A stretch of DNA of 38,382 nt from Stramenopiles sp. TOSAG23-2 (lineage: Eukaryota): assembly GCA_900128395.1 (NCBI GenBank), contig LT649318.1:1-38382 (forward strand). The letters are read 5' to 3'. Below are positions 2,874-38,371 of the stretch, piece by piece. Within the stretch, counting starts at the first letter, position 1, and each line of letters starts with the position of its first letter. Made by a program: the position numbers and the translations under genes. The notes under the pieces are model-generated. The model was not told the origin of the DNA and did no database searches. It saw only the letters and a list, made by a program, of their open reading frames with translations.

Positions 2874-2918
2874 AAAAGTATATGATAAAGTTTATGTGTG
2901 TGTAAAATATAAAAAGAT

Positions 2919-3140
2919 ACTCCGTATACGAAGCGTATACTTTAGTATGATATAATGTCGGCGTGTGTAAAACAATTAATTATTATTTTAAAAATTTAAA
3001 AATAAAATAAAAATATACGGTTCGTATCATATATATATATGTTTTACGAATACTTTTATATTCGTATCATACATGCACATACAAAATAAATGTACTCGTA
3101 CGTACATATAATTTGAAATTTGAAATTTTTTATTCGTATC
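2919..3140. other. TACG/CGTA-rich patch between convergent gene 3' ends
   Basis: ccgtatacgaagcgtatac, tacggttcgtatc, ttacgaa, ttcgtatc (x2) and tactcgtacgtac in an otherwise very AT-rich spacer. Function unknown. Confidence 0.6.
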
Positions 3141-3146
3141 TCTCTC

Positions 3147-4514
3147 TCAACAATTGCAATTCCATACAAATAGTTGTTTTTTATTCTCATTTAATATGGC
3201 CATCTTTTTGCCTTCGTAATCACTAAATGCGATTTGTTTAATTTTTCCTCCGGTACTTCCATCATTGTTTATTACAAGTACCTCTTTCAATACTCTTTCT
3301 CGTGATTTTGAGTCTCTTACCTCACAATCATAGATGTAAATATTACTCGAATCATCAACACATGCTATTTTTTTGCCGTTTAAGCTCATTGTACATTTTG
3401 ATATTGGTGAACCAACATTCTTCTTCGACAGAATTTCAGGATCGGCTTTTAAATCAAAACGTACATCAATATCCCATAAGACTAAATAGCCATCTTCACC
3501 AGCAGTTACTACTCGATCTGATATGCCACTTGCTACGCCAGCATCGTTTGGCCCAAAACAAACCGCATTGACATTTGACTTGTGCGCACTTGCTGCCAAC
3601 ACCATTACATGCTTATTAGATACGTTTTGAAAAACAGGTTCTGCTGATCCTTTTTCTTTCTTACGAACAACTTCGAAAATTTTAACTTCAGAATTTTTTG
3701 TAGAAGCATTACAAATAAAATGTCCATCTGTTGATAATATTGCACCACCATATGAACAACTTTTATTTGGAACTTGACCAATTTTTGTTCCATTTTTAGA
3801 ATCCCAAACATAAAAATATTCATCTGATTTACAGTCACACCCAGTAACAATAATGGGCGATGAGTATGCCGTATCGATGGAACAACTTTGAATAATTCCA
3901 CTGTGATATGTATTAAATCGTCTTTTTTTCAATTCGATTAATTCATATTTAAAGCCACTAGAAGATGATTTCTCCCCACTGTTTTTTTTCTGACGCATTC
4001 GAAAGAAATAAACTTCCCTTGACGACTCGGAGGACCCAATCAATGTCAATGAATCAGCCGCCCAAGACAAACTAGTTATTGTATCACCTTCCATATTGAT
4101 ACGAAAAAACAACGGGACTCTTCCACTAGAAGTATTGTTCATTGTATCTTCTAATTCAGTAACTCGTACCGATTGATCTTGTGATGATGTTGCTATCCAT
4201 TTTTTATTTGGGGAGACTGCAAAATTAATAATATTTTGTGAATGTCCTTTGATTGCATGTGAAAAGTTTTCATGGCTTGGTAAAGGTTCTCTCTTCTTCT
4301 TTTTCTTACCGCCACCAAGCTTATTTGTTTTAATAGAAGATGATTTCTTTTTCTTTTTCTTTTTTTCATCTTGTAATTTCTCTGCGTCCATTTGTTCCTG
4401 CAGTTTTAATTTTTTCGTGAGTTTCTCTTTGCTTTTGTCTTTGCCATAAATATAATATGCAGAACCAAATACAATGAATAGCATTAATATTATTGAAAGG
4501 AATATGTTCAACAT
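3147..4514 (-). CDS. TBL2: Transducin beta-like protein 2 (N-terminally anchored WD40 protein)
   Basis: N-terminal hydrophobic anchor (IFLSIILMLFIVFGSAYYIY), Lys-rich linker, first WD repeat IKGHSQNIINFAVSPNKKWIATSSQDQSVRV, and the TBL2-like segment VTAGEDGYLVLWDIDVRFDLKADPEIL. Confidence 0.85.
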   Translation of the reverse strand: MLNIFLSIILMLFIVFGSAYYIYGKDKSKEKLTKKLKLQEQMDAEKLQDEKKKKKKKSSSIKTNKLGGGKKKKKREPLPSHENFSHAIKGHSQNIINFAVSPNKKWIATSSQDQSVRVTELEDTMNNTSSGRVPLFFRINMEGDTITSLSWAADSLTLIGSSESSREVYFFRMRQKKNSGEKSSSSGFKYELIELKKRRFNTYHSGIIQSCSIDTAYSSPIIVTGCDCKSDEYFYVWDSKNGTKIGQVPNKSCSYGGAILSTDGHFICNASTKNSEVKIFEVVRKKEKGSAEPVFQNVSNKHVMVLAASAHKSNVNAVCFGPNDAGVASGISDRVVTAGEDGYLVLWDIDVRFDLKADPEILSKKNVGSPISKCTMSLNGKKIACVDDSSNIYIYDCEVRDSKSRERVLKEVLVINNDGSTGGKIKQIAFSDYEGKKMAILNENKKQLFVWNCNC

Positions 4515-4787
4515 GATTGCAAATATAATAATGATATGTTATTTATAGTATGGTATGTATGATATAAAAATTGTATATATATGTGTGTGTGTGCCTGTAA
4601 TTTGTATATTCTATATCACCCTTGTCGGATGTACGTGTGTTGTTGTTGATTATTTTAATCCAAAAGAAGAGGACAAGACGTGAGATACAGTACGCGCGCA
4701 CATTTGAAATGTTTTCCTGAAAATGATATTTTATAAAAGGATAATATATGTTACGTGAATATTTATACTACACTCTTCCACACTTTT

Positions 4788-5390
4788 TTATGCTTCCTCT
4801 TTATCCTCCTCAGGGTTTTCTACATAAGTTTGGATTAAATTTTGTATTTTATTCACTTCTAAAACTAAATCATTCAATTCCGTTTTGGACATTTGAAACT
4901 TTATCGAACTTACAGAATTACTATTTTTTTTTCCAGTATTCATTTCAACCAATGCAACAGGAGCACTAAATTCAGGTTCACTAGATGTGTCGTTACGAGT
5001 TGTGGTTACATCTAAGCGCCACGAAAAATTTTTCAACGTAGTTGACCATGTTGCATCATTACATAATGTTGTGTGAATTTTTTCTCGTTCAGATGCCCAA
5101 TACAATTTTGCTATCTTACAATGTTCCTCTGTACAATCAAATTTCTCTTGAAAGCTTTTCATAAATTCTTCATCCGTCGCATCATTGAAAGCGCATAGTT
5201 GCAAAATCTTTAAACAATCATTGAAAAACACATCAACTTCAGCTTCGGTCATCTTCGAATTTGCCATCACGTTATCCCTTAAAAACTCATTATTATATTT
5301 CGTCTCACCAAAAAACGTTCTACGTATCAAACCTTTTAATAAACCTTGGAAACTTCTTGCATCTATATCAATTTTTAAAGCTTCACTCAT
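4788..5390 (-). CDS. COMMD1: COMM domain-containing protein, most like COMMD1
   Basis: FQGLLKGLIRRTFFG...YWASEREKIHTTL...WSTTLKNFSWRLDV...APVALVEM...IKFQMSKTELNDLVLEVNKIQ matches the COMMD1 layout. First ATG is at 5390; the track start at 5417 is GTG. Confidence 0.8.
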   Translation of the reverse strand: MSEALKIDIDARSFQGLLKGLIRRTFFGETKYNNEFLRDNVMANSKMTEAEVDVFFNDCLKILQLCAFNDATDEEFMKSFQEKFDCTEEHCKIAKLYWASEREKIHTTLCNDATWSTTLKNFSWRLDVTTTRNDTSSEPEFSAPVALVEMNTGKKNSNSVSSIKFQMSKTELNDLVLEVNKIQNLIQTYVENPEEDKEEA

Positions 5391-5666
5391 TATTATTTTA
5401 TTTTTTTTACGTTCCACTCTTGTCTTTGTTTATCTTATTTTAAATTAACAAATATCTACTCTACCTTATATATATTCAGCTGTCTTACTACTACAAATAA
5501 ATATATATATATATAGATATATTTACTACTAGATACTTATTGTCACTTATTGTATGTTTTCTATCTGTCGTCTGTATAAAGATTTAATTTTGTGTATAGT
5601 GCTTCAATAGATAGTTGTTGTTGTTTTATTCATTCTGGCATTTTTTATTATATTATTATTATATTA

Positions 5667-5770
5667 TAGCTATAATAAGCCAGATAGCTAAGCCTGGTAG
5701 CTAACCAGGGCTAAGCCAGTAAGCCAGGACAGTATTACGCGTAGCTCTACCTGGCAGGCTGGCGTACAGC
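5667..5770. promoter_or_regulatory. GC-rich AAGCCWG(G)/TAGC motif patch upstream of COMMD1 (putative regulatory element)
   Basis: TAAGCCAG 5676, TAAGCCTGG 5689, TAACCAGG 5702, TAAGCCAG 5712, TAAGCCAGG 5720, then cctggcaggctggc. Similar patches lie upstream of other genes. Confidence 0.45.
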
Positions 5771-6060
5771 AGAGAGAAGTTCTCTCTGATTACAGTATTA
5801 TATAAATTGTAGTAGTATAATATTAGTCGTCTACCAATATATCTTAGTTTTGATAGTAATTCTACGTGCCTGAGAAAATAAAATAAAATATGATAATAAT
5901 AAAAATCAAACATATATACGAGGTACATACTTCATTTTAATAATACTGTGGACACACACACAACACAATTTTTCTATTTTTTTTTTTTTCCACACCTCTT
6001 TCTTTATACAGTCTCTTTTTACTATACTTTTCTCCTCCTGTTCACTTGTTTATTTCTTTT

Positions 6061-10239: not shown

Positions 10240-10274
10240 CTACAAATTGCTATGAATAACAGATAATAACCTTG

Positions 10275-10301
10275 TATATATATATATATATATATATATA
10301 T
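10275..10301. repeat. (TA)n microsatellite
   Basis: About 13 consecutive TA units just upstream of the 1392-aa gene. Confidence 0.9.
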
Positions 10302-10823
10302 TATGTATACACAACTACATATATGTAAAACTTTTGTATGTATGTATATATATGGGTGTGTATGATAATATGATAATGCAATCTTGTATATTATTATCTG
10401 ATGCAGCGAAGGTAATAAATAATGCTGTTTCAGCCTATTGCCACTAATGCTTTTCGTATGCATTACGTCCCCCCCATCTTTTTAAAAATCGAGGAAGAAG
10501 TTTTTTTATCTTCTTGCTTCGTTTTTATCACTATTATTGTTGTATATATATATAGATGCACATACTATTATTCATCGCTATAGCCCGCTTATAGCATTAT
10601 GTACCGCACACACCGCACTACGCATTAATAAAGCAAGAAAACTATAGGTAGCTAGCCCTACTGGTACGTAAGTGCGTAAGGCTAGATCCTAGTCTAAAAT
10701 CTAAAACATTTTGGGAATTGTTTGGTATTCTAATTTTCAATACAAGTATAACTTTCGTGTATAGCACTATAGTTTGATTCTTTTTATTTTTTTGCCATAT
10801 TATTATTTGTTGTTGTTATTGTT

Positions 10824-10859
10824 GCTGTCCCGGGCTGTCCAGCTGGCCAGCTGTGCACC
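10824..10859. promoter_or_regulatory. GC-rich patch in a divergent promoter region: GCTGTCC x2 plus a 14-bp palindrome
   Basis: gctgtcc at 10824 and 10834; perfect palindrome cagctggccagctg at 10840-10853. GCTGTCC is the reverse complement of the GGACAGC repeated at 28907-28925. Confidence 0.45.
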
Positions 10860-11016
10860 TTAACCTGTTGTTGTTATTTCTTTCTTCAAAATAATAAAAA
10901 TAATAATAAATTCGAAGTGAAAGTGTTGTAATAATAAGTAAAAAAGGAATATTTTAATTGAAAGCATTTTATTGTTTGCTGTGTTTTTTAACAAAAACAA
11001 ATGAGATAGAATAAAC

Positions 11017-12102: not shown

Positions 12103-12104
12103 TA

Positions 12105-12155
12105 TACTTCGTACTCGTATTCGTATATATATACGAATAATATATACTCGTATGA
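12105..12155. other. TACG/CGTA-rich patch immediately after the METTL9 stop (convergent spacer)
   Basis: tacttcgtactcgtattcgtatatatatacgaataatatatactcgtatg. Confidence 0.6.
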
Positions 12156-12422
12156 CCCACGTGCGATAAGATCAGAGGATATGGAGGAATAAAAAACAGA
12201 CCCATAATATTTACTAAAATAAATATATTATTATTTTTTAAAAAATTAAAATTCTTACTACTAGTTTTTAAAAATTTTAATGTACTCTCTTCTTCTTTCT
12301 TTTTTTTACTTTTCTATTTTTACTTCTTCTCTATATTTTTTTTATATATTAATTTTGTTATTTTAAAAATATAAAAATCTATTCTTTCTCTATATTCTTC
12401 GTTTCTCTTCTCGCTAATTTCT

Positions 12423-24146: not shown

Positions 24147-24791
24147 GATGGAAGAATTGTTCAATAATTTGTATCTATGTAAACTATTAACAAATCTTAT
24201 ATAATGTAACTATATATGTATAATGTATTAATAGCACAATTATCAAGATTTCAATTCTCTTACTGTAAGATCTCTATCTATATTCAATGTTTTTATAATT
24301 AGTGTATTTGGACATACCATATATACATATATACATATAGTATATATATCTGGTATGCATTTATTATTATTACTATATATTTATCAATATTCTTTTTTAA
24401 TCCTATTGCTATGCTGGAAATAATAACTAATGCTGTGATCATGTAATCTCCCCCCCTTTTTTCCTAGAAATTGACTCACCGTCACCTCCGCCTCGTAAAA
24501 AACAAAAGTATCTTCTTCTTTTATTACACTAACATGCATAAAAATGTCTATAGATAGGGAATGTACCATTTTAAAATTAAGGATGGTTTTTGATGTAGTA
24601 GCTATATACTTGCAGTAGTATTTGCATTGAAAAATCTGTTTGTCATATTTCCTTAACATGAATTCCTAGATAAAACGAGGTACATTGAGTCGATATTGTG
24701 TGTGTTTATTCATAAATGCTGTGTCAATGATAGCTGTATTATAATGTGAAAATTATAGAAAAGAAGGTGAACGAGCAAATATTTTTATAGA

Positions 24792-24830
24792 GCAAGCCAG
24801 GCAAGCCCGCAAGCTGGCAAGCCTGGCAAG
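24792..24830. repeat. Five tandem GCAAG(C) units (8-9 bp period) in a divergent promoter region
   Basis: gcaagccag-gcaagccc-gcaagctg-gcaagcctg-gcaag. Related patches lie at 24985-25001 and 25106-25138. Confidence 0.75.
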
Positions 24831-25105
24831 ATGAAGGGAAAAAAAAGCTGTTTGCGAATCTATAGTAATACCATTGTAATGGAGGTTATGATAATGCTGT
24901 GATGTGCAAATAAGAGAGGCCATCAAAAAAGTAAAGAGGCCCACAATCACACTACTGGATAAGTATCACACTAGAATTAAGAATAGCTAGCCAGGCTAGC
25001 AATATAGCAGAATGCTGTGGGAAGAACTGTATACCAAAAATATAATAATGTGGACAAACTTTTTCACTTGATGGTGCTACACAGTATGTCCATTGTAGAA
25101 GAATA

Positions 25106-25138
25106 GCAAGCCTGGCCTGGCTGGCAAGCCAGGCAAGG
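25106..25138. promoter_or_regulatory. GC-rich AAGCCWGG patch upstream of YIPF1/2 (putative regulatory element)
   Basis: gcaagcctggcctggctggcaagccaggcaagg. Confidence 0.45.
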
Positions 25139-25566
25139 AGAGTTTCTTTTTCTTCCAACTTTAAGAAAAGCTTTACAGCAAACAGCAATATATCCATGCT
25201 ATGTCTAGGGAAGGGCTAAGGGCTATGGTAGCTACGGCAACACTATGAGAGACGTTTGTAATCTTCATTCCCTCTGGCCCTATCAATTTAAACTTATAGT
25301 GAACTTTTTAGTAGTCTAATATCTTTACAATTATCATCCCAATAATAATAATAATAAATGAAAATAAACAAACCACAAAAAAATAATAATAATAAAAAAT
25401 ATATTCAAAAAAATAGAGAGATTTAATATATTGAATAATGCAATGCCATAAATAGAATAAATGCAAAAGAAAGAAGACAAAACATAGAAGAATACAAAAT
25501 AAGTTACACAAAATAAATTATTAACAATACTAATATTATATAATTATATATTAACAAAACAACATA

Positions 25567-26370
25567 ATGATGGATCATGAAGAAGGTGAAAATCCATTTG
25601 CCGAAGTGGAATTAGAAGGTGGTACTATGGGTGATAACGGTGACTTTGCTGAAGATGATTCATTACTTGAAAATAATAATAATAAAGCTAATGAAACGGG
25701 GGTACAGAAACCAGCTGGTATGTGCAGTTGCTTTTCAATTGCATTTTATCAACCATACTTTAACGTAGATACTGATGATGTGAAGCAGCGTTTGGTGCGT
25801 TCCCTGAAAGGGTTCAAAGATCATGATTTCGTTGAATTTATATCACAAAAACCAGATTTGTATGGACCTTTTTGGATTTATACAACGTTGATTTTTGTTA
25901 TTGGTGCTACTGCAAATTTTGCTAGTTATTTATCTTTTGTTCCAACAAAAAAGAACCCGACCTGGAGTTATGATTTTACATTATTAACTGGTGCGGCGGC
26001 ATTGATCTATGGTTTTGCTATTGGTGTATCTGCTGGACTTTGGTTAATATGTCGTTATTTTCGTGTACCGTTTAATCTTTTACAATCTGCGTGTGTATAT
26101 GGTTATGCACATACCGTTTATATATTTGCTGCTATCATTTGTATTATACCAAGTAATGCAATTGGTTGGATCGGTATTATGTTTGCCTTTGGTGTTGCGG
26201 GCGCTTATTTAGGATTTAATTTATTAGCACATTTGAAGAAACATTTTGATAATGTTCAACAAACAAATGGTGTTGTAGGTATAGTATTACTTTCACATGC
26301 TGTTTTTGCCGTTTTATTAAAATTATATTTTTTCAAACATATTTTAATCAAAGAGGAAGAGACATTTTAG
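25567..26370 (+). CDS. YIPF1: Yip1-domain family Golgi membrane protein (YIPF1/YIPF2-like)
   Basis: FYQPYFNVDTDDVKQRL, PDLYGPFWIYTTLIF and CVYGY motifs, five hydrophobic helices, acidic N-terminus. Confidence 0.9.
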   Translation: MMDHEEGENPFAEVELEGGTMGDNGDFAEDDSLLENNNNKANETGVQKPAGMCSCFSIAFYQPYFNVDTDDVKQRLVRSLKGFKDHDFVEFISQKPDLYGPFWIYTTLIFVIGATANFASYLSFVPTKKNPTWSYDFTLLTGAAALIYGFAIGVSAGLWLICRYFRVPFNLLQSACVYGYAHTVYIFAAIICIIPSNAIGWIGIMFAFGVAGAYLGFNLLAHLKKHFDNVQQTNGVVGIVLLSHAVFAVLLKLYFFKHILIKEEETF

Positions 26371-26497
26371 AAACTTTAATACACTAGAGAGGATAGAAAG
26401 GATGAATGAAGAACGAGAGAGAGAAGAGAAAAAAAGATACATACATATATATATATATATATGTGTGTATAAAATATTGAAATATTAAATATATATA

Positions 26498-26655
26498 ATA
26501 CGACACACACCAGATATGAGCATACGAGAACGCGTACGTAACACTAAAAATACGCTTCGTATGCATAACGAATATGATATGCATACGTACGTTTTCATAT
26601 GATATCATACTATATGCATGTTGTATATGATATGATACACACAAAAAATACGAAG
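26498..26655. other. TACG/CGTA-rich patch between convergent gene 3' ends
   Basis: atacgac, catacgagaacgcgtacgtaac, atacgcttcgtatg, catacgtacg, aatacgaag. Confidence 0.6.
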
Positions 26656-26757
26656 AAGACACTCTCTGGTGCAATGTTCAAGCGGTGTAAACTAGTAAAC
26701 ATCTCGATGCTGTCACGGAAAAGTATGATATCATATATATATATCATTTCTTATCAT

Positions 26758-28572
26758 TCATATATTTAGTGAAGGAGGTGGTGCCATTGGTGGGGGTGGT
26801 ATATCACTATCAACACTATTTGGTGTTCCTGGTGGAAGTGCAGGGCTGCTCATTACTGAGTCATTATCATCATCATCATCTTCAGAAAAATCAGAATCAT
26901 CACTGGGATCGCTACTATCAGCATTTACCATTGGTGATGGTGGTTCAACGAACGGCGGTATGAGTGGTGGAACATCGTCCTCTTTGTTTGTATCGTTTTC
27001 TATCGTTGGAGTTAATGGAGGTGTTGGCGGTGCAGGTGGAGGTATTGATGGATTTCTAATATGCCCCGTCTTAACATTTTCCGAAGTATCAACTATAATA
27101 GTGGGTATTACAGTTGGTGCAACGCCTACATCATCATCTTTGTTTTCATTAGTTTTATTCCCATTATTATTATAATTGTTGTTGTTGTTGTTGTTGTTCT
27201 TGTTTCTATCAACAACACTTTGTCTTTTATCCCAATTCGCACGCACAGCTTGATGTAACTCATCATCAATTGGTACAAGCTGATTTTTGCCATTAGACAA
27301 ATTCCCATAATTATCTGCAATTGCCGTATTTATCGCTTTTGACGTTTCAACATTTAATGTTAACATCAATAATTCACGTTGTTTCGGATTTAGTGTCATT
27401 AGATATAACTGTTGTTGCCTTGGTTCAAGTTCTGTAAATGTAGGTTCATATTCTTCTCCCTCGTCCTCCTCCCCATTTGCTTTGTTCCTGTTAATAGCAT
27501 TATTTTCACGCTTTTTACTTTGTTTGCTATCTCTTAATAATTTTTTTACATTTTTTTCATTTTCATTTATTTTTTGCAAAGTTCGTTTACTTTTTGGAGA
27601 TTTATCTTTCATAAATTTCAACCGTTGATCTAATTGCATTAATTCTTCGTTTAAAACCCGTTCCTCATCATCTCCCATTCTTAATTTATTAACTTCTCCA
27701 TTATTTAATTTCGATTTAATATTGTCAAAACGTTGTTTTAATGAACCATTAATAATGTGTAAATTCGTCATGGCTTCAGGATCTTTATTATCATTATTAT
27801 TATTACTTTTATTATTTTTTATTATTTCATCATCTCCTAAAATATCTTCGACTTGTTGTTCTTCTTGTTTCTTTGATTGGTATTTTCTCATAGCTTCTTG
27901 CTTTATTGATTGACGATGCATTTCCGTTTCTCGACCAAGTATATTGTAACCATTTGGCGCAGGACCTTTTGATCTTGCTGACTTTGTTTCCCAACGTTGT
28001 ACATATTTTGTTTTATGCATGACGTCGCGTGCACTTAATTTAAAATTATGCTCCTCTGGATGTTTATCATATGAACGTAAACCATTATGCCAGTGTTGTG
28101 GTGGAGATTGTTGTCTTCTTACTCCTTGTACGCCATGGGTTTTTGTAATTTTTCTAAAGTCTTTTAATGTTCTTGCAGTTTGCTTATTAAATTGACGTGG
28201 ACTTAATAATTTTTGCTGCCCCCCATGATAATGTAGATTTTGTTGCGATGATTTTGTTACTCTATTGTTTCCTTTATTACTTTTATTTTTACTACCACTT
28301 TTATTATAGTTATTGAAGTCACCACGTTTCATGAAATGTGATAAACGCCTTAATGAGGTATGTTCCTCATCTCTCATGCTTTGCCTCCGATCTTCTGGCG
28401 TTGCACCTATTTCATCATAAAATTTTGTCAACGATGAATTGGCTAAATCCGAATTTGCTAAACTTTCATAAGAAGGTAATGCAAGTTCCTTTAAATCTTT
28501 TTTTGCAGCTTCTTCACTAATAGTTAATGCATTTAATATATTATCTACTTGTTGTATATTTGACAATGCCAT
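26758..28572 (-). CDS. Hypothetical protein (604 aa): coiled-coil middle, poly-Asn tracts, Pro-rich/acidic C-terminus
   Basis: Long ORF with first ATG at 28572 (MALSNIQQVD; track start is TTG). C-terminal PPPAPPTPP, SDDSDFSEDDDDDND, PPPPMAPPP. No family recognised. Confidence 0.75.
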   Translation of the reverse strand: MALSNIQQVDNILNALTISEEAAKKDLKELALPSYESLANSDLANSSLTKFYDEIGATPEDRRQSMRDEEHTSLRRLSHFMKRGDFNNYNKSGSKNKSNKGNNRVTKSSQQNLHYHGGQQKLLSPRQFNKQTARTLKDFRKITKTHGVQGVRRQQSPPQHWHNGLRSYDKHPEEHNFKLSARDVMHKTKYVQRWETKSARSKGPAPNGYNILGRETEMHRQSIKQEAMRKYQSKKQEEQQVEDILGDDEIIKNNKSNNNNDNKDPEAMTNLHIINGSLKQRFDNIKSKLNNGEVNKLRMGDDEERVLNEELMQLDQRLKFMKDKSPKSKRTLQKINENEKNVKKLLRDSKQSKKRENNAINRNKANGEEDEGEEYEPTFTELEPRQQQLYLMTLNPKQRELLMLTLNVETSKAINTAIADNYGNLSNGKNQLVPIDDELHQAVRANWDKRQSVVDRNKNNNNNNNNYNNNGNKTNENKDDDVGVAPTVIPTIIVDTSENVKTGHIRNPSIPPPAPPTPPLTPTIENDTNKEDDVPPLIPPFVEPPSPMVNADSSDPSDDSDFSEDDDDDNDSVMSSPALPPGTPNSVDSDIPPPPMAPPPSLNI

Positions 28573-28894
28573 TTTTGCTATAAATGCTAAAGCAATAAAA
28601 ATAATATGATATCTTAATATATTATTATTATATAATTCAAAGCACAGCAAAGTAAGTTCCAATTGTGTTTATAATCGTCACAAAAATAGACAGAGACCGC
28701 AGACACAGGCAACAGATATAGATAAAAATTATACACAGAAATGATATATATATATGTTCTACCAACAAAATAAAAACAAACAAATATGTACACATATGTT
28801 GCATATATCTCTAACTGATACCAAAAATATAAATAACATTTTTATAAGAAGTGCTGCTATTTATACGCTACAAATAGGTCCCAAGTGTTTTTGG

Positions 28895-28933
28895 CACAGC
28901 CGGACAGGACAGCCGCCAGGACAGCCAGACAGC
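28895..28933. promoter_or_regulatory. GGACAGCC-type direct repeats in a divergent promoter region
   Basis: cacagcc-ggaca-ggacagcc-gcca-ggacagcc-agacagc. The same core occurs on the opposite strand at 10824-10840. Confidence 0.45.
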
Positions 28934-29256
28934 GTCTCTCTGGTTTTTATGAAAGTACGATACATTTAAGGTTTTTCATCGGTACCTATTTAGCATATAA
29001 ATAGCATTAATGTTATTTGTATTCTAATCTGTGACAACCTTCAATTAGAACCTTCGAACCTAAACATTATGATATTATGATAGGCGACACATATGGTAGA
29101 CTCGGCGGCACGTAGTAGTTGCTACTATAGCTAATACAACAAATAAAAAACACACGCCAAAGGCAGCACCAAAATATGATGAAATAATAAAAAAATAATT
29201 ATATATACAGTATTTTAAAATAAAGAAACAATAGTTGCGATAATATGGAAAAGATT

Positions 29257-29311
29257 ACACACACACACACACATACATATGTATTACTGAATAATAATAA
29301 TAATAATAATA
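29257..29311. repeat. (AC)n and (AAT)n microsatellites
   Basis: acacacacacacacac at ~29257-29272 and about 7 aat units at ~29290-29311. Confidence 0.85.
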
Positions 29312-29367
29312 GTACGAAAGAGAAAATTCAATGCGAACATATATATATATACACACATATAAAGAAC

Positions 29368-30801
29368 ATGTACAAAGAACAAAAATCGTATGAACCGTTA
29401 GGTCAAGAAATGGAAGAAGAACAAAATCCACATATATTGCTGCCATTGAATGTTGTATGTAAATTGTTTTTACCAGTATCATTAGCATTTATATTGTTCG
29501 TATCTATTATAATAATTACATTTATTACAGCTAGTCCTAATGGGAAAATAACATCTGTTATTTTCGTATTTCGTGATGCAGGAGAATATTTTTCATTAAT
29601 TCCATTTTTATTAACACTTCAAAAACAACAGGCAAATAATTTTTTAGTATCTGGTATTATTATTAATGGAGGTACAGCACCTGCAGACGCTTCAATTGAA
29701 AATAAAAATATTTTTATGTTATCATCTTTTTTTCCAAATTTAAATGCTAAAAAATTAATTGAACGAAATCAAACATTTGATCAAGCAAATGAATTTGTCA
29801 AATTAATTATAAAAAAGCAAGAAGAGGATAATTACCGAAAAGAAATTAATCGTTTTGTTGTTATTTCGGGGTTAGTTTCAAAAGCTCAAATTGATATAAT
29901 AAAAAATTTCAAAATTGTATATAATAATAATAATAAATTTGAAACAATTGGATATGATGATGGTTTTAACAATTGGGATAAAAATACATGGGGTCATAAA
30001 GCAATGACTACAACTATTACTATACAAACAACTAGTGATGGTAAAAAATATCAAAACGATAAACGTAGAAGTATATTTGATAAATTATGGGTAAATGCAA
30101 ATAGTATAAAACAAGAAGCAACAAAAGCAATTATGATTCCATCATTGAAATCACAAGTTGAAATAGAAGTTGTAGGTGATTCGTCATTTTTGCAATGGGA
30201 AAAAGCAACAAAAAAAGATATATTATTTTATAAAAATGTACGTAAATATATGTATGGTAATAATGAAGAAACTTGTTTTGGGATTTTATATTTCGGTGGA
30301 TATGGCAATGGATATTATGAATCTGTACAATTATTTGCAAATGTAGTAGGAAATATAACAAAACAATATAATCAAAAAATAACAACATTTTTTTGTTTTT
30401 CCTTTGTTGCTCATCCAGGTGCAAGATTTAATACGAGAAAAGAGGAAGAAATATTTAAAAATGCAGGGGCTAATAATGTTAAAATACTTTCAAGATCAGA
30501 ATATGCAACATCAATATATGCAAAAGCTAGTAATGCAACTTTATCACAAGGTAGTTCATGTGGACCTCAAAGTATAAGTATTGGAATTCCAAGTTTGTTT
30601 ACAGAAAGTTCAAATAATATTTTTCAAACGGAAGGTTTATTAGCAATTGGAAATAATTTTACTGCATTAAAAACATGGTTTTATAAAATGAAAGCAACAA
30701 ATGGACAATTACCAGGTGGTGAAAGCCATGATGGTGCTACTATTTTAAAAGATCTCGGCATTCCATTGGATCCAATAGCACGTTGTATGGAGTATTTATA
30801 A
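29368..30801 (+). CDS. Type II membrane protein with a probable GT-B fold (CDP-glycerol glycerophosphotransferase / UDP-GlcNAc 2-epimerase-like superfamily)
   Basis: One N-terminal TM (LPVSLAFILFVSIIIITFI), then VIFVFRDAGE, TIGYDDGF, IEVVGDSSFLQW, ILYFGGYG, FVAHPG, ASNATLSQGSSCGPQSISIGIP, resembling the GT-B HP...ST..EA...G.P pattern. ATG 29368 is preferred because the upstream in-frame ATG 29245 runs through CA/AAT microsatellites. Confidence 0.6.
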   Translation: MYKEQKSYEPLGQEMEEEQNPHILLPLNVVCKLFLPVSLAFILFVSIIIITFITASPNGKITSVIFVFRDAGEYFSLIPFLLTLQKQQANNFLVSGIIINGGTAPADASIENKNIFMLSSFFPNLNAKKLIERNQTFDQANEFVKLIIKKQEEDNYRKEINRFVVISGLVSKAQIDIIKNFKIVYNNNNKFETIGYDDGFNNWDKNTWGHKAMTTTITIQTTSDGKKYQNDKRRSIFDKLWVNANSIKQEATKAIMIPSLKSQVEIEVVGDSSFLQWEKATKKDILFYKNVRKYMYGNNEETCFGILYFGGYGNGYYESVQLFANVVGNITKQYNQKITTFFCFSFVAHPGARFNTRKEEEIFKNAGANNVKILSRSEYATSIYAKASNATLSQGSSCGPQSISIGIPSLFTESSNNIFQTEGLLAIGNNFTALKTWFYKMKATNGQLPGGESHDGATILKDLGIPLDPIARCMEYL

Positions 30802-31260
30802 TTATATATATATATACCCTGTATTATTAATTAGAATATAAAAAGTCTCAATGCATACATAGTACTAGCTAATTATAAACTTTTTTTTTAATTACGGTGG
30901 TAGTGCTATGCACCTATTAATACCACCAGGTACAATTGTATTTCCCCTAAGTAAATATTATATTATTATTATTCGTCTGGGCACCTAGGCAGTTGCCTAG
31001 TAGTAGTAGTATACAAAATAAATACAACAAGGCCAATATATATATGATGGTATGCAACATACGTAACATTATACCAGATTATATTATAAATAATTTACAC
31101 ACATATGTATGAAATATAAGACACATGATTGTTGATACGTAAGTAAAAACATCGCATATAACCTATATGTAGTAACCACCGTAACGACAACAAACAACTC
31201 ATAATAGTAATACCGTTAGCCGTGTGTGGAAGGGGGAAAGAGATAGAATTTTGTAAGAAG

Positions 31261-32532
31261 ATGAAGTTAACATTGGAGGCATTACAAGATCCAAAGTATC
31301 AAGAGTCAAAAACTAATTTTCAAGAAAAATTTCAAAGAGCATTTGAAACTAATAATAATAATACTGATGAATTAAGAAGACAGCAACGGAAGATTAAGAA
31401 TAGAAATAGAACGAAAAAAGTTGCAAACAAAATGCAAGTGGAAGTATTTGACATGCTTGGGACTACAAGTAATGCTGTAAGGGCAGTAAGAAAATGGTTT
31501 CAACAAAAAGAACATATTAAAATTGCTTCTGTTACTGGAAAGTTAACTTTATTATATTTGCGTAACCAAAAGTTAGATCCCAATACGGGTAAAATAATTA
31601 CAAGGCCAAATGCAACGATTCATTCGAATGATAGATTAGCTGTATTATATGTTTTAAACGATTTATTTCAACGAATTCATAAAGGTAAGAACACTGATAA
31701 TAATGGTAATAAGAATCGACAAAGACGAGATAGCACTGGCGATGAATCCAGTAATACTACAACGATTTCAAATCAGCTCAATAATATTAGCAGAAAAAAT
31801 AAAAAATCATTTATTGAAACTGAACAAGATTTGATGTTGGATAATGGTGATAATTATTCAAAGCAATTGTCTTTGTTTGATTATCGTGAAAAGTGGAGTA
31901 ATATCATGCCTAATCTTGTTGGCGAATGTTGTAAAAATTTATATGGTCAAGATTTAGAAAATTGTAAGTTGGTGTTAAATGTATGGAAGACTAAAAAGAT
32001 TTTAAATGGGAACATGTTACAACACATTATTGATAAATATATCTCTAAAATAACAAGTAGTAAACGACGAACCGAAGATCATCATGATGACAATAATAAC
32101 AATTACATCAGTAGTGGCAGCAATGTTGTTATAAAGAATAATAATGCAGTAATTACACCAAACCATAATAAAGACATGGAGAAATACCAATATGTATCTA
32201 CATCATCATTTAACGCGCCATCATCAAATAATAATACAAAAGGTTTTTCTTCATCTGGTGGTAGGAAGAGTAATAAAGGGCATGCCAAGAAGAAAACAAT
32301 GATATTGCAAAAAAATAATGGTGGTGGTGGCAGTTTTTTTAGAGCTACAAATGCAAATAATAATGTAACGTCAAGTCATAGTCGTAAACACACTAGAAGT
32401 AATAATAAAAAAAAGAACAATAATAACAAGAACAAGAAAAGAAAATTGAATTCACAACAGCGTCGTAATAATCATAATAATAATAACAGTAATAGTCGTA
32501 ATAAAAGTAGAAGTAAGAAGAGCACAAGTTAA
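31261..32532 (+). CDS. CTD-interacting domain (CID/RPR) protein with a basic, Asn-rich disordered tail
   Basis: AVRAVRKWF, RLAVLYVLNDLFQR (CID signature KL..LYL.ND..Q) and CKLVLNVWKTKKIL (CID last-helix pattern). First ATG is 31261; the track start is GTG. Confidence 0.7.
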   Translation: MKLTLEALQDPKYQESKTNFQEKFQRAFETNNNNTDELRRQQRKIKNRNRTKKVANKMQVEVFDMLGTTSNAVRAVRKWFQQKEHIKIASVTGKLTLLYLRNQKLDPNTGKIITRPNATIHSNDRLAVLYVLNDLFQRIHKGKNTDNNGNKNRQRRDSTGDESSNTTTISNQLNNISRKNKKSFIETEQDLMLDNGDNYSKQLSLFDYREKWSNIMPNLVGECCKNLYGQDLENCKLVLNVWKTKKILNGNMLQHIIDKYISKITSSKRRTEDHHDDNNNNYISSGSNVVIKNNNAVITPNHNKDMEKYQYVSTSSFNAPSSNNNTKGFSSSGGRKSNKGHAKKKTMILQKNNGGGGSFFRATNANNNVTSSHSRKHTRSNNKKKNNNNKNKKRKLNSQQRRNNHNNNNSNSRNKSRSKKSTS

Positions 32533-32643
32533 AAAAGAAAAAATGAAAACTTTGTTTTAAATTAAAATCTAGGTTCTATGATGGGTGGTGTCCTACAAAA
32601 ATGTATGTAAAAAATTCGAAGAGAAGACGACGCGTCGTGTTTG

Positions 32644-32664
32644 GAGAGAGAGAGAGAGAGAGAG
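32644..32664. repeat. (GA)n microsatellite
   Basis: About 10 GA units. Confidence 0.9.
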
Positions 32665-32675
32665 GGTATTTGTAA

Positions 32676-32891
32676 TACTCGTACGAACGTTAATATATAC
32701 GTACGAAGTACGTACGCGTACGATTTACGCGTATAATATGTCATATCATATTACTAATGTCTGTCAAATTCGTATCATATAAACAATACGATCGTAATAT
32801 ACTTACGAAGTACTTCTTTTTAAAATATACTCGTACGTACGAAGTCGTACGAGAATATGTACAAATATTTTTTAAAATTACGAGTACGTAA
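32676..32891. other. Densest TACG/CGTA (CGTACG) patch, between convergent gene 3' ends
   Basis: About 14 TACG counted by eye in ~215 bp, e.g. tacgtacgaagtacgtacgcgtacgatttacgcgta and tcgtacgtacgaagtcgtacga. Confidence 0.75.
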
Positions 32892-32916
32892 TTTATAATA
32901 TATATCATATTCCTTT

Positions 32917-34068
32917 TTACTCTGGTTTCTTCTTCTCTTCGCCATCATTTTTTACAGTATTCTTCTTACTCGTACTATTACCAGAAGTTGATGCTTGTTT
33001 ACTTATTGTTGTATTTTTTGTTGTATTGGTACTGCTGCTACTGCTGCCTCCAAATGGATTAATAGCATACGTAAATGCATTCCATAAATGTTCGCCACTC
33101 TTTTTTTGTATATTAGAATCACCTAGTACTTGTTGCATCCAAAATGCTGCATGTTTACCAACTTCTTCATCATTCAACACATTATGTGTAACAGACGTAG
33201 CTGCATCTGTTGAACTTTGTACAACATCTGCACGTGCTAAGGTATGTACTAATAATTGACCCAATGCAGCGCGAGTTTGTTCATCTTCCATCAATTGTGA
33301 CAATAAATCCAAAACAACCTTTTTCGTCCATGGCTCTTGTAAAACATTGCCAAATAATATCGTCACTTGATCTAATGTTTGTTGATCTTTTAATATGTAC
33401 TGGACAACATTTTGTGATAATTTATTTACTTCATTCTGTGTCTCTGGATTGCGTAATGCAATGACTAATAATTGCACCAAAGCAATTTGTGTTTCTGGCT
33501 GTTGGACTAAATTTTGTAAAAATGTTACCGTCTGTTTTAATACTTTTTCATCTTGTAAAACAGTATTTACGGCACCAATTGCTAATTGTTGCACCTCAGA
33601 CTGAAATTCCTCACTCGCAATACTTTTACTTGTAACCTCGGCAACATTTCCAGAAAAATAATCGATAATAGTACTACCATATATCCATGTACCCATGCCA
33701 ATAAGTAAAAATGCACCACCATATATACGAGAATTTTTTTGACTTTGTAAACGCATAAGACGTTCCATTGCATTTTCCATACTAGCAGTTTCTTCCTCAG
33801 CTGCTGAAATAAATGTGCGCCGTTGACACATTCTATTTACACGAATACAAGATTGGCTTTTTCTTATGTTCCCATATTTACGATAACGAGTAAAAATATT
33901 GATTCTATTATGATTGATATTGTTATTATTATTATTTAGTCTATAATTATTTCTATTATTCTTAATAAAATGGTGATATTTTCTACATTGATGTGCCAGC
34001 ATTTTATTTTTCTTGTTGATATTTACAATTGATTTCATCTTGGAAGGTTTATATATTTTAGAAAACAT
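32917..34068 (-). CDS. Probable mitochondrial single-pass membrane protein with ~19-aa amphipathic helical repeats
   Basis: Long Arg/Lys-rich, acid-free N-terminus ending QRRTFISA (presequence-like). TM IYGGAFLLIGMGTWIYG. Repeats VLQDEKV / LVQQPETQ / LRNPETQ / ILKDQQT / VLQEPWT / LMEDEQT / VLNDEEV / VLGDSNIQ. Confidence 0.7.
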   Translation of the reverse strand: MFSKIYKPSKMKSIVNINKKNKMLAHQCRKYHHFIKNNRNNYRLNNNNNNINHNRINIFTRYRKYGNIRKSQSCIRVNRMCQRRTFISAAEEETASMENAMERLMRLQSQKNSRIYGGAFLLIGMGTWIYGSTIIDYFSGNVAEVTSKSIASEEFQSEVQQLAIGAVNTVLQDEKVLKQTVTFLQNLVQQPETQIALVQLLVIALRNPETQNEVNKLSQNVVQYILKDQQTLDQVTILFGNVLQEPWTKKVVLDLLSQLMEDEQTRAALGQLLVHTLARADVVQSSTDAATSVTHNVLNDEEVGKHAAFWMQQVLGDSNIQKKSGEHLWNAFTYAINPFGGSSSSSTNTTKNTTISKQASTSGNSTSKKNTVKNDGEEKKKPE

Positions 34069-34517
34069 CTTTGCTTCGTTTTTGTTTTCTTTTGTGGTTG
34101 TATTTAATATCTCACTGTCATGTACGATAACAGCTGTAATTTACATACGTTTGAATCTGTATATTTTCTTCTTTCATCTTTTCTTATGTCTCTATTCATA
34201 TATATTATTAGAATTATATACATTCATACACACACATTTCTATTTTATGAAAAATTCGTTATACACTAATAAGTATAGTCTCTATGTGTGTACATTATAA
34301 TTGAAGGGTCATCAACACATCAATAAGTTTTGATGAATATCTCATGTATATCGATATGCCATAATGAGATTGACAACAGAAAGGTCCCTCTCAACACAAA
34401 CCGGGTCATATGTGATACGAAGCGTAAATACTTTTTGATGATAACAAAACATTCAAATAGACCGTGTGTGTGTTTGTGTGTTTGTGTGTAGAGAGAGGAA
34501 GTAATTTTTTAGTTTTT

Positions 34518-34641
34518 TACGTTCGTATTTATTATCGCGAGGTTAAAGTTATATATATACGTACGACTCGTACATACAAGAGAATATTTAAGATACACAC
34601 AAATATATCTCTCTATTTTTAGAGAAAAATATATTCTCGTA
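34518..34641. other. TACG/CGTA-rich patch downstream of the 899-aa gene stop
   Basis: tacgttcgta, atacgtacgactcgtac and ctcgtaa within ~170 bp of the stop at 34688. Confidence 0.5.
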
Positions 34642-34687
34642 AAATTTGTTTTATAATTTTTTTTTTTAAATATAATAAATCTCAAAA

Positions 34688-38354: not shown

Positions 38355-38371
38355 CCCCCCCCCCCCCCCCC
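38355..38371 (+). repeat. Poly-C homopolymer (17 nt)
   Basis: Run of 17 C, 11 bp from the window end. Confidence 0.9.

Follow-up and report, generated by a model that had tools for sequence, protein, structure and literature searches.

Why do short words with a CpG core collect where genes end in compact, AT-rich marine protist DNA? The preliminary description of this locus reported clusters of TACG and CGTA in four convergent spacers and in the 3' side of one tandem spacer, and it offered three explanations: a lineage-specific signal for 3'-end processing or termination, a boundary element bound by protein, and a trace of local CG methylation or mutation. The window analyzed here is the whole stretch of DNA (38,382 nt), and the enrichment, repeat, and folding results below all refer to this one 38 kb window with its 12 genes. 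Ordinary eukaryotic genes are present (Yip1, COMMD1, CID, and WD40), 5' spacers are long, and ORF12 had no relative among a viral contig collection.

RESULTS

CpG-cored words are concentrated in spacers that face stop codons

The four spacers are convergent because the ORF ends that flank them face each other: 2873(+)/3147(-), 12102(+)/12423(-), 26370(+)/26758(-), and 32532(+)/32917(-). The spacer at 34069-34687 is tandem, and its 3' side faces the ORF at 34688-37387(-). These ends agree with the coordinates and orientations first reported. The number of TACG or CGTA words per 100 nt was 4.03, 1.56, 2.84, and 6.51 in the convergent spacers and 1.10, 0.78, 1.43, and 1.78 in the tandem spacers, compared to 0.77, 0.14, 0.52, and 0.00 in divergent or 5' spacers and 0.12 to 0.79 in the 12 ORFs. 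The count in each spacer was compared to those of 1,000 dinucleotide-preserving shuffles. Convergent spacer 1 held 11 words versus 5.8 expected (13 of 1,000 shuffles reached 11), spacer 3 held 11 versus 5.1 (4 of 1,000), spacer 4 held 25 versus 11.2 (0 of 1,000), and the tandem spacer at 34069-34687 held 11 versus 5.4 (8 of 1,000). Spacer 2, with 5 words versus 2.5 expected (80 of 1,000), was not significant alone, and its cluster was limited to the first 50 nt adjoining ORF5. None of the remaining seven spacers had an unusual word count (85 to 1,000 of 1,000 shuffles reached the observed value). Across the whole 38 kb, every one of the five densest 100-nt windows lay inside a 3' spacer, and convergent spacer 2 was joint sixth, tied with one ORF-internal window.

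The sequence context of the CpGs differed in the same way. With TA context defined as TA directly before or after the CpG, CpGs in this context made up 45 of 63 in convergent and 22 of 39 in tandem spacers, compared to 10 of 52 in divergent ones and 159 of 887 within ORFs (convergent versus divergent, Fisher test, 2.6e-8). Convergent spacers, which total 1.4 kb, contained 4.62 CpGs per 100 nt, 3.3 times the density of the divergent spacers (1.38 per 100 nt in 3.8 kb). The reported richness of the five spacers and scarcity of the words in divergent spacers were therefore borne out. The statement that the surrounding DNA is CG-poor was correct for noncoding DNA outside the patches, as the divergent spacers illustrate, but not for the whole window, in which CpG was only mildly depleted (observed/expected, 0.87).

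The actual vocabulary of the clusters was TACGA/TCGTA, CGTACG, and TACGAAG. TACGA/TCGTA occurred 34 times in 2.5 kb of 3' flank, 4 times in 4.5 kb of 5' flank, and 51 times in 31 kb of ORF, and 35 of the 38 intergenic copies were within stop-facing spacers, mostly 7 to 190 nt from the nearest stop, which supports within the window the proposed tie to gene 3' ends. Counts in 3' flanks, 5' flanks, and ORFs were similarly distributed for TACGAAG (8, 0, and 3) and ATTCGTA (6, 0, and 0), whereas TATATA was not 3' specific (35 in 3' flanks versus 43 in 5' flanks). CGTACG, which had been named as the core, was present and mostly confined to 3' flanks (11 of 14 copies), but it was not the main word, the nonpalindromic TACGA/TCGTA being commoner.

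The words showed no strand bias. On the sense strand of the 3' flanks there were 18 TACGA and 17 TCGTA (13 versus 13 in the first 150 nt), while other words in the same flanks were strongly directional (GAGAG 18 versus CTCTC 0, TGTGT 15 versus ACACA 2, and AAAAA 50 versus TTTTT 14). Because they are strand symmetric and form palindromes, the cluster words could serve both convergent genes, as had been suggested. They were not avoided inside ORFs (observed/expected, 0.9 to 1.1), so a single word is no potent terminator.

Table 1. Positions of word clusters, inverted repeats, and predicted hairpins in the window
Feature	Position	Strand	Details
Convergent spacer 1 cluster (ORF1+/ORF2-)	2923..3139		11 TACG/CGTA words; 10/12 CpGs in TA context
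Perfect inverted repeat GTATACG-aag-CGTATAC	2924..2940		51 nt past ORF1 stop; folding z -2.9 on one strand, -3.3 on the other
Perfect inverted repeat TACGAATA-ctttta-TATTCGTA	3045..3066		8-bp stem
RNA hairpin of 16 bp predicted around CGTACG, G-U pairs included	3070..3110	-	Sense of ORF2; 141-nt segment z -3.9, opposite strand -1.4
Convergent spacer 2 cluster	12108..12153		Directly 3' of ORF5 stop; (TTCGTA)x3.2, then palindrome
22-nt perfect palindrome TATTCGTATAT/ATATACGAATA, spacer 2	12118-12139		After (TTCGTA)x3.2
Convergent spacer 3 cluster (ORF7+/ORF8-)	26499..26655		11 words; kept in conspecific contig L001
Inverted repeat CGTATGCATA-n10-TATGCATACG, spacer 3	26558-26587
34-nt imperfect palindrome, spacer 3	26572-26605		Centre ACGTACGT
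Convergent spacer 4 cluster (ORF10+/ORF11-)	32679..32894		Densest; 25 words, 21/27 CpGs in TA context, 12 CpG-bearing inverted repeats
Inverted repeat TACGTAC-gaa-GTACGTA, spacer 4	32698-32714
Inverted repeat TACGCGTA-cgatt-TACGCGTA, spacer 4	32713-32733		At spacer midpoint
Inverted repeat CTCGTACG-n8-CGTACGAG, spacer 4	32830-32853
Inverted repeat AAATTACG-agta-CGTAATTT, spacer 4	32875-32894
Composite predicted RNA hairpin	32810..32887	-	Sense of ORF11; 136-nt segment z -3.0, first 150 nt after stop z -3.9
Tandem-spacer cluster, 3' side	34518..34641		47-170 nt past ORF12 stop; sense (-) RNA z -3.2, opposite strand -0.9
10-bp hairpin, tandem-spacer cluster	34556-34578
Isolated ATACGAAGCGTA copy	34414..34427		Same 12-mer at 2926-2937 and, reverse-complemented, at 26551-26562
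Weak case, downstream of ORF3 stop	4629..4756		3/7 CpGs in TA context; alone not significant
Weak case, downstream of ORF4 stop	5736..5921		5/7 CpGs in TA context; 85/1000 shuffles reach the count

The clusters form inverted repeats, and 3' flanks are predicted to fold

We counted inverted repeats that were perfect and carried a CpG within the arm, with a stem of at least 6 and a loop of at most 12. The four convergent spacers together held 18, a tandem spacer and the terminal 5' region held one each, and the three divergent spacers held none. When whole spacers were compared to 4-mer-preserving shuffles, 19 repeats were found versus a mean of 4.8 (0 of 300 shuffles reached 19), and when only the clusters were considered, the 18 repeats were still about twice the expectation of 9.2 (2 of 500 shuffles) and covered 240 bases versus 133 (0 of 500). 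This excess was carried mainly by convergent spacers 4 and 2; the clusters of spacers 1 and 3 and of the tandem spacer, taken singly, had no repeat excess over such shuffles. The TACG and CGTA half-sites were 0 to at least 14 nt apart. Predicted stems were 6 to 16 bp long, with several per spacer that shared common words but differed in sequence. Several of them close a C-GAA-G loop (TACGTAC-gaa-GTACGTA, TACGAAGTA, and the TATACGAAGTATA of a related strain), and the remaining hairpin loops were AAG, GTT, CTT, or longer. No consistent T-run followed the stems, and only 1 of 11 terminator-like sites in 24000-38382 was within a cluster.

For each of the 12 ORFs, the 150 nt that follow the stop were folded, and the result was expressed as a z score relative to shuffles. 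On the sense strand the mean z was -1.93, with 6 of 12 flanks at -2 or below, and on the antisense strand it was -1.07, with 3 of 12. The corresponding means were -0.07 and +0.07 for 5' flanks (0 of 11 at -2 or below) and -0.39 and +0.05 for ORF interiors (1 of 12). The sense folds of 3' flanks were stronger than those of 5' flanks (Mann-Whitney, p=0.006). The sense strand gave the better fold in 9 of the 12 3' flanks, a difference that was not significant at n=12 (Wilcoxon, p=0.077). Palindromes of (TA)n that lack CpG accounted for part of the 3' signal, as in the ORF7 flank.

The clusters turn over rapidly and are restricted to a lineage

The conspecific contig retained the convergent spacer 3 cluster with a similar number of CpGs (10 versus 11), and ACGTAT-c-ATACGT stood in place of the palindrome ACGTACGT. 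The two strains differed at 11 of 162 aligned cluster sites versus 7 of 296 four-fold degenerate sites, with many indels, and no purifying selection on the exact cluster sequence was visible over these 162 sites. In a relative with 83% protein identity (L002), the orthologous convergent spacer had two words only and no inverted repeats, and a (TACG)4 microsatellite was present within a divergent spacer. Presence in the conspecific and absence from the orthologous spacer of this relative support the view that the clusters are lineage specific.

RNA matches were assembled contigs, most of which stopped near ORF ends, and they revealed no poly(A) site. One of them (X7), from a poly(A)-selected seawater library, was ~97% identical over ORF9 and departed from the window 2 nt after the ORF9 stop, with TATACGAAGTATA... 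in place of the (TA)n of the window, a hint that related strains have such words in transcribed 3' UTRs.

DISCUSSION

We tentatively interpret the clusters, with a probability of about 40%, as the hairpin-type and strand-symmetric component of bidirectional 3'-end zones, which would be variants of the palindromic UAUAUA zones of yeast. The yeast bidirectional termination zones are reported to center on palindromic UAUAUA/UACAUA/UAUGUA (bioRxiv 10.1101/2022.11.02.514956). In our window as in S. cerevisiae, short palindromic TA-based words, readable on either strand, lie between convergent genes within compact zones that span a few hundred nt, and TACGTA fits T-A-pyrimidine-purine-T-A, a pattern that is our own summary of the S. 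cerevisiae variants. Conversely, the 3'-specific words here are CpG cored and mostly nonpalindromic half-words (TACGAA and TACGAG) paired into hairpins, and TATATA lacks 3' specificity. Short TpA-rich inverted repeats (arm of at least 5, spacer of at most 8) are reportedly enriched in yeast at 30 to 60 nt before the poly(A) site, with a proposed action at the RNA level (Miura et al. 2018, PMC6420913). They resemble ours in their statistical enrichment near gene 3' ends, but the yeast repeats are pure AT types and were established across the genome from mapped poly(A) sites, while the discriminating repeats of our 12 genes contain CpG and a common word family.

According to the "hairpin rule" reported for Mimiviridae (PMC4402537), viral transcripts end and are polyadenylated at palindromes able to form hairpins. 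Both settings are AT rich and intron poor, with dense genes and 3' intergenic palindromic hairpins usable by convergent genes; however, the Mimiviridae system is a cytoplasmic viral transcription apparatus, in contrast to the ordinary eukaryotic genes here, and our stems are shorter, several per spacer, and built from common words. Bacterial bidirectional intrinsic terminators and REPs, as described in bioRxiv 10.64898/2026.03.23.713779, likewise place G/C-clamped hairpins in convergent 3' intergenic DNA and have a comparable repeated palindromic vocabulary, but the window is in a eukaryotic nuclear context and has no consistent T-run, and REPs are one conserved sequence family while our stems differ in sequence. 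The C-GAA-G loop and closing pair of some of the hairpins, not all, resemble, and only resemble, GNA-triloop mini-hairpins of the GCGNAGC type, reported to be extraordinarily stable (PMC13037366). The earlier remark that no described element of this kind was known is thus too strong for the class, which includes the yeast zones, the yeast poly(A)-site repeats, and the hairpin 3' ends of Mimiviridae; for the CpG-cored word family itself, a literature search found no paper.

The clusters could instead be a nonadaptive by-product, an account that we regard as doubtful, in which palindrome and simple-sequence processes (slippage, the perfecting of quasi-palindromes by template switching, and single-strandedness associated with transcription) run unchecked in the least constrained, doubly transcribed convergent and 3' spacers of a compact genome, and CpG-cored TA-rich hairpins pile up without function because they are the most stable seeds. 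The position of the clusters amid runs of (TA)n, (GA)n, and (GT)n and tracts in which pyrimidine and purine alternate, found in all spacers, is consistent with this, as are the one true short array, (TTCGTA)x3.2, the correspondence of (TA)n to TATACGAAGTATA in the related strain, the microsatellite and missing cluster of the more distant relative, and the tolerance of the words in ORFs. The rapid divergence between strains, with its many indels, fits a mutational origin too; we count this turnover, with CpG number nearly kept, for the hairpin reading, and the constancy of that number argues against a by-product. So does the fact that divergent spacers, which are longer, equally rich in alternating TA/TG/CA tracts, and fast evolving, have 0 to 1 CpG-bearing inverted repeats and ordinary CpG contexts. 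Furthermore, decay of (TA)n by transitions should yield far more CA/TG than CG, which is seen in 5' spacers but not in the clusters, and Tandem Repeats Finder detected no (TACG)n array in them.

We consider it improbable that the words are double-stranded DNA sites, with TACGA/CGTACG bound by a gene-end factor (a roadblock terminator or boundary protein) or targeted by a CpG- or site-specific DNA methyltransferase. Their perfect strand symmetry in strongly biased flanks, their high CpG density, and the recurrence of longer words (ATACGAAGCGTA three times, TACGAAG, and ATTCGTA) would suit such sites, but no candidate binding protein or methyltransferase was linked to the motif, and the tendency of RNA to fold better on the sense strand via G-U pairs (ORF2 and ORF12 flanks) would be needless for a DNA site. 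Hairpins are favored over a fixed dimer site because the half-site spacing varies. Origin from one dispersed transposon or MITE, which the preliminary description had named as a refuting case, or from a degenerate (TACG)n microsatellite is highly improbable. Words of 7 to 12 nt do recur between patches, and there is one 19-nt hexamer array; however, terminal repeats and target duplications are lacking, a whole-window search (seed 11, length of at least 16) joined no patches by a repeat family and returned AT-rich low-complexity matches only, and Tandem Repeats Finder, run with the most permissive score, found no period-4 array in any cluster. Such an origin is thus largely refuted within the window.

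For the bidirectional 3'-end zone that we favor, any action of the hairpins, its level (RNA and not DNA), and a role in 3'-end formation are inferred. The modules, strand symmetric, able to form hairpins or cruciforms, and made of CpG-core words (TACGA/TCGTA, CGTACG, TACGAAG, and TACGCGTA) within TA-rich DNA, would sit where transcripts of one or both neighbors must end and would be the nondirectional part of a 3'-end or termination zone. One or two C-G pairs would clamp an otherwise weak TA-rich stem, so that a stable short hairpin could form in the nascent RNA (or DNA duplex) whichever gene is transcribed, promote cleavage or termination, and block read-through into the convergent neighbor. 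Direction would be supplied by the strongly strand-biased words found beside them, namely (GA)n, (UG)n, and runs of A. Against this proposal stand the tolerance of the words in ORFs, the concentration of the repeat excess in two spacers, the nonsignificant strand difference in folding, the part of the folding signal due to (TA)n, and the divergence of the exact cluster sequence between strains. Given the relative whose orthologous spacer lacks the cluster, any signal here would be young or replaceable.

Distribution of TACG/CGTA words among genes and spacers

The 38,382-nt window has a G+C content of 35.5% and a CpG observed/expected ratio of 0.87, and approximately four-fifths of it consists of twelve long ORFs, whose map agreed with the spacer coordinates and orientations of the preliminary description. 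The domains found were ordinary eukaryotic ones (KR/ACP of a polyketide-type synthase, WD40, COMMD1, DREV methyltransferase, Yip1, and CID), one product was a 3,913-residue TIG/PSI protein, and five of the 12 ORFs had no Pfam match. In a protein atlas, Yip1 matched generic eukaryotic clusters only. The 5' spacers were 580 to 1400 nt in length. Across the window, there were no matches to Rfam covariance models at gathering score, and a tRNA search returned none. ORF1, encoding a polyketide-type ACP/KR protein, contains two identical copies of a 47-nt sequence spaced 300 nt apart, which probably reflect a tandemly duplicated carrier-protein module. (AC)n and (TA)n tracts occupy the first approximately 120 nt of ORF9 as listed; its real start codon is probably farther into the ORF, and the divergent spacer would lengthen accordingly. 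ORF10, which adjoins the densest cluster, has a weak match (E = 2.7e-7) to the CID, the Pol II CTD-interacting domain found in termination factors, and this proximity is probably a coincidence. The data behind all of the results described here comprise 12 genes, a conspecific contig, and a second, more distant contig.

The density of TACG/CGTA words was 4.03, 1.56, 2.84, and 6.51 per 100 nt in the four convergent spacers (conv1 to conv4, respectively), 0.78 to 1.78 in tandem spacers, 0.00 to 0.77 in divergent or 5' spacers, and 0.12 to 0.79 in ORFs, and all five of the densest 100-nt windows of the entire sequence were in 3' spacers. The earlier claim that such words cluster on the 3' sides of genes and are few in divergent spacers was thus borne out. 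Word counts exceeded those of dinucleotide-preserving shuffles in conv1 (equalled or surpassed by 13 of 1000 shuffles), conv3 (4/1000), conv4 (0/1000), and the tandem spacer at 34069-34687 (8/1000); the excess was not significant for conv2 by itself (80/1000) or for any divergent spacer. The clearest statistic was the context of CpG, which was directly preceded or followed by TA at 45 of 63 sites in convergent spacers, 22 of 39 in tandem spacers, 10 of 52 in divergent spacers, and 159 of 887 in ORFs (convergent versus divergent, Fisher 2.6e-8). CpG density in convergent spacers was 4.62 per 100 nt, 3.3 times the value of 1.38 for divergent spacers.

Positions of spacers and other features (window coordinates unless L002, a metagenome contig from a relative, is named)
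Feature	Position	Remark
Convergent spacer conv1	2874-3146	
Convergent spacer conv2	12103-12422	
Convergent spacer conv3	26371-26757	
Convergent spacer conv4	32533-32916	
Tandem spacer	34069-34687	3' side faces ORF12
ORF12	34688-37387	minus strand
ORF10	31222-32532	
ORF9, listed start	29245	
(AC)n and (TA)n tracts, ORF9	29256-29361	
47-nt duplicate, ORF1	1-47, 301-347	
12-mer ATACGAAGCGTA	2926, 34416, 26551	copy at 26551 reverse-complemented
TATGATA/TATCATA sites	26572-26609, 26724-26747, 32734-32753, 2945-2955	
(TTCGTA)x3.2 array	12108-12126	
Predicted hairpin, ORF2 flank	3070-3110	
Repeats and palindromes of divergent spacers	24792-24830, 24986-25000, 25110-25134, 10834-10853, 28896-28932, 37745-37767	
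Bins without RNA-contig cover	26404-26754, 30967-31317	among bins listed
Chimeric joints and A-rich inserts, library X8	32404-32549	
Loose contig end, library X8	behind 32445	
Tandem repeats of approximately 40 nt and (TACG)4 microsatellite	L002 2227-2370, 2613-2626	divergent spacer of L002

Vocabulary of the 3' flanks

An unbiased k-mer comparison covered 2.5 kb of 3' flanks, 4.5 kb of 5' flanks, and 31 kb of ORFs, with each word counted together with its reverse complement. The palindrome CGTACG, which the preliminary description had regarded as the core of the clusters, was indeed present and enriched in 3' flanks but was one family member only, the commonest members being nonpalindromic.

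Word counts by sequence class
Word	3' flanks	5' flanks	ORFs
TACGA/TCGTA	34	4	51
CGTACG	11	0	3
TACGAAG/CTTCGTA	8	0	3
ATTCGTA/TACGAAT	6	0	0
ACGCGTA/TACGCGT	7	0	1
TACGTA	9	2	7
TATATA	35	43	19

Purely 5' spacers held just 3 of the 38 intergenic TACGA/TCGTA words, and the 12-mer ATACGAAGCGTA occurred three times. The words were not avoided in ORFs, where observed/expected ratios were 0.9 to 1.1 against a maximal-order Markov model. Relative to the closest stop, TACGA stood in the sense direction in 18 cases and TCGTA in 17, which rules out a linear strand-specific RNA motif. A second vocabulary of the 3' flanks, TATGATA/TATCATA (16 in 3' flanks, 5 in 5' flanks, and 4 in ORFs), frequently took the form of the palindrome TATGATATCATA, which contains GATATC.

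Within the first 150 nt after the 12 stops, the sense strand was strongly purine skewed (A, 751; T, 582; G, 283; C, 184) and contained GAGAG 18 times versus CTCTC 0 times, TGTGT 15 times versus ACACA twice, and AAAAA 50 times versus TTTTT 14 times. Against this directional background, TACGA was exactly symmetric (13 versus 13), making the CpG words the nondirectional component of the 3' flank. Words of the GTGTGTA(A/T)AA type were located 28 to 120 nt past six stops and, together with GAGAG, TGTGT, and AAAAA, are candidates, on sequence grounds, for directional, UGUA-like 3'-end signals.

Inverted repeats and predicted RNA folding

The cluster words pair up as short inverted repeats: GTATACG-aag-CGTATAC, TACGAATA-ctttta-TATTCGTA, TATTCGTATAT/ATATACGAATA, CGTATGCATA-n10-TATGCATACG, TACGTAC-gaa-GTACGTA, TACGCGTA-cgatt-TACGCGTA, CTCGTACG-n8-CGTACGAG, and AAATTACG-agta-CGTAATTT. 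With perfect arms, a CpG in the arm, a stem of at least 6, and a loop of at most 12, there were 18 such repeats in the four convergent spacers, one in the tandem spacer, one in the terminal 5' region, and none in the three divergent spacers. Since TACG and CGTA are mutually reverse-complementary, some inverted repeats arise automatically, and we therefore used shuffles that kept all 4-mer counts. Whole spacers contained 19 inverted repeats compared to a shuffle mean of 4.8 (0 of 300 reached the observed number); for clusters only, the values were 18 versus 9.2 (2/500), and the bases covered were 240 versus 133 (0/500). The main carriers of the excess were conv4 and conv2.

The repeats of divergent spacers were instead G+C richer and used another vocabulary: GCAAGCCTG x4.6, GCTAGCC-a-GGCTAGC, GCCTGGCT-ggca-AGCCAGGC, CAGCTGG/CCAGCTG, ACAGCCGGACAGG x2.9, and AGGCCTTACC x2.4. 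They were absent from 3' spacers and are candidate promoter-side motifs, judged by sequence.

Predicted RNA folding of 150-nt segments was expressed as z relative to dinucleotide shuffles. The mean z was -1.93 in sense and -1.07 in antisense for the 12 3' flanks, -0.07 and +0.07 for the 150 nt before 11 starts, and -0.39 and +0.05 for 12 mid-ORF windows. Values of -2 or below were obtained for 6 (sense) and 3 (antisense) of the 12 3' flanks, for none of the 11 5' segments on either strand, and for one of the 12 mid-ORF windows on each. The difference between 3' and 5' flanks was significant for the sense strand (Mann-Whitney, p = 0.006). Sense folded better than antisense in 9 of 12 3' flanks, which at a Wilcoxon p of 0.077 is a hint only. 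The clearest cases were the ORF2 flank, with a predicted 16-bp hairpin including G-U pairs (z of -3.9 versus -1.4), and the ORF12 flank (-3.2 versus -0.9). Plain (TA)n palindromes, as in the ORF7 flank, provided part of the folding signal.

Repeat and viral identities

The patches could have been fragments of one dispersed transposon, as the preliminary description allowed, but no repeat family of at least 16 nt connects them, so they are not pieces of a single element; a dispersed transposon or MITE with alignable copies, terminal inverted repeats, and target-site duplications was likewise not found. Nor are they a (TACG)n microsatellite: Tandem Repeats Finder (score 30) detected no period-4 array in any cluster, its sole array being (TTCGTA)x3.2. 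Alternating pyrimidine-purine tracts of at least 10 nt were also present in 5' spacers, where they consisted of TA, TG, and CA steps without CG, and hence neither (TA)n decay nor a Z-DNA-like alternating-tract bias explains the 3' specificity. A scan for bacterial-type terminators gave 11 sites versus 5.6 expected, one alone of which was within a cluster. ORF12, the one of the 12 ORFs that was compared to a viral contig collection, had no relative there; because of this and the long 5' spacers, a giant-virus origin of the window is unlikely.

Related contigs and RNA libraries

A single metagenome scan with the Yip1 protein (ORF7) gave 80 retained loci, two of them close (L001 and L002) and the other 78 at 26 to 35% identity; the comparison below uses the two close loci. 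The conspecific contig L001, which is 3.7 kb long, has 99% protein identity and differs at 7 of 296 four-fold sites. It carries the same convergent pair and has kept the cluster: its spacer contains 10 TACG/CGTA words, and both of its 5' flanks are free of them. The L001 and window clusters differ at 11 of 162 aligned positions and by several indels; CpG numbers are 10 and 11, respectively, and the window palindrome ACGTACGT is replaced by ACGTAT-c-ATACGT, likewise palindromic. One 5' flank differs at 31 of 273 sites, diverging even more than the cluster, so this strain comparison gives no evidence on constraint either way. L002 (7.4 kb, 83% identity, 44% G+C) is syntenic, and its orthologous convergent spacer, the one compared, contained just 2 such words and lacked inverted repeats. 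A (TACG)4 microsatellite is present in the L002 divergent spacer, as are four tandem repeats of approximately 40 nt of the type gatacac-ttttatttgtt-gggaatgtagtccc.

Parts of the window were present in 15 RNA-labelled seawater libraries. The RNA evidence consisted of assembled contigs (23 runs), and four libraries (X2, X8, X4, and X7) were compared over positions 25000 to 35500. Their contigs cover ORFs at 95 to 99% identity and thus come from related strains. Among the assembled contig ends listed for this region, no clean poly(A) end was found in a spacer. The only poly(A)-like end among them, from the oligo-dT library X8, was rejected as a poly(A) site, being inside the A-rich tail of ORF10 amid many chimeric joints. 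These joints and the A-rich inserts around that tail have the appearance of an artefact of assembly or priming, not of splicing. An X7 contig (poly(A)-selected seawater RNA), approximately 97% identical over ORF9, departs from the window 2 nt past the stop and reads on TATACGAAGTATATAATATATGAGAG where the window has (TA)n, indicating that related strains gain and lose such words at other 3' ends. The TATACGAAGTATATAATATATGAGAG word is probably in a transcribed 3' UTR of a related strain, with DNA carry-over in the library being possible.

Interpretation of the clusters

In the best-supported reading, to which we assign a probability of about 0.4, each cluster would serve as a strand-symmetric hairpin module within a bidirectional zone of 3'-end formation or termination. 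TA-rich stems would be clamped by C-G pairs, either transcript or the DNA duplex could fold into a stable short hairpin, and the machinery would learn which gene is ending from the purine-rich and UG-rich words, which are directional. It is improbable that these modules amount to a nuclear "hairpin rule," by which CpG-clamped mini-hairpins (TACGA/CGTACG) would close Pol II units on both strands, one cluster ending both convergent genes, with the hairpin recognised by an RNase III-like or other structure-specific factor and not as a linear poly(A) signal.

The main rival to the hairpin-module reading, somewhat doubtful in our judgment, holds that palindromes and simple sequence grow where DNA is doubly transcribed and under weak constraint, with the clusters arising as a by-product. 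Their fast turnover, the missing cluster in L002, and the tolerance of the words in ORFs all fit such an origin, yet the divergent spacers, which are longer and equally repeat rich, carry no CpG-bearing repeats. If the words were recognised as duplex DNA by a binding protein or a methyltransferase, their strand symmetry and the recurrence of longer words would be accounted for, but half-site spacing is variable and sense folding depends on G-U pairs, and we consider this explanation unlikely.

The yeast efficiency element has a set position ahead of cleavage/poly(A) sites on both strands and is recognised by Hrp1, an RNA-binding subunit of the cleavage factor, and nucleosomes are depleted there. 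Published work describes yeast bidirectional termination zones centred on palindromic UAUAUA/UACAUA/UAUGUA (bioRxiv 10.1101/2022.11.02.514956), TpA-rich inverted repeats located, in yeast, 30 to 60 nt upstream of poly(A) sites (PMC6420913), and, in Mimiviridae, the ending of (nearly) all transcripts at hairpin-forming palindromes (PMC4402537). As in yeast, palindromic TA-based hexamers are 3' enriched and strand symmetric here (TACGTA and CGTACG), whereas the canonical TATATA is not 3' specific; by analogy, the proposed modules would work like the yeast UAUAUA zones and TpA-rich inverted repeats. Their likeness to the viral rule is one of form. Predicted sense folding reached a z of -2 or below in half of the 3' flanks and in no 5' flank. 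The viral context is lacking, given the eukaryotic housekeeping-type domains and long 5' spacers. In open-access full text, we found no description of the TACGA/CGTACG word family at gene ends and nothing pertinent that joins the words with polyadenylation, convergent genes, or stramenopiles. The earlier statement of knowing no described element of this kind agrees with this search as regards the CpG-cored word family but is too strong for the class of phenomenon, already known from yeast and giant viruses.

To our knowledge, how convergent transcription stops within 300 to 400 nt in very compact eukaryotic genomes is poorly understood outside yeast. In single-cell and metagenome assemblies from this group, the words would give annotators an inexpensive indicator of where genes have their 3' ends and how they are oriented. 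Should the clusters be a mutational by-product, they would be a clean example of transcription-side-specific palindrome growth. If they are functional, a protist lineage would have replaced the plain UA-rich palindromes of yeast with a CpG-clamped hairpin vocabulary, a nuclear solution near that of giant viruses, whose 3' ends are hairpin defined, and near the bidirectional terminators of bacteria.
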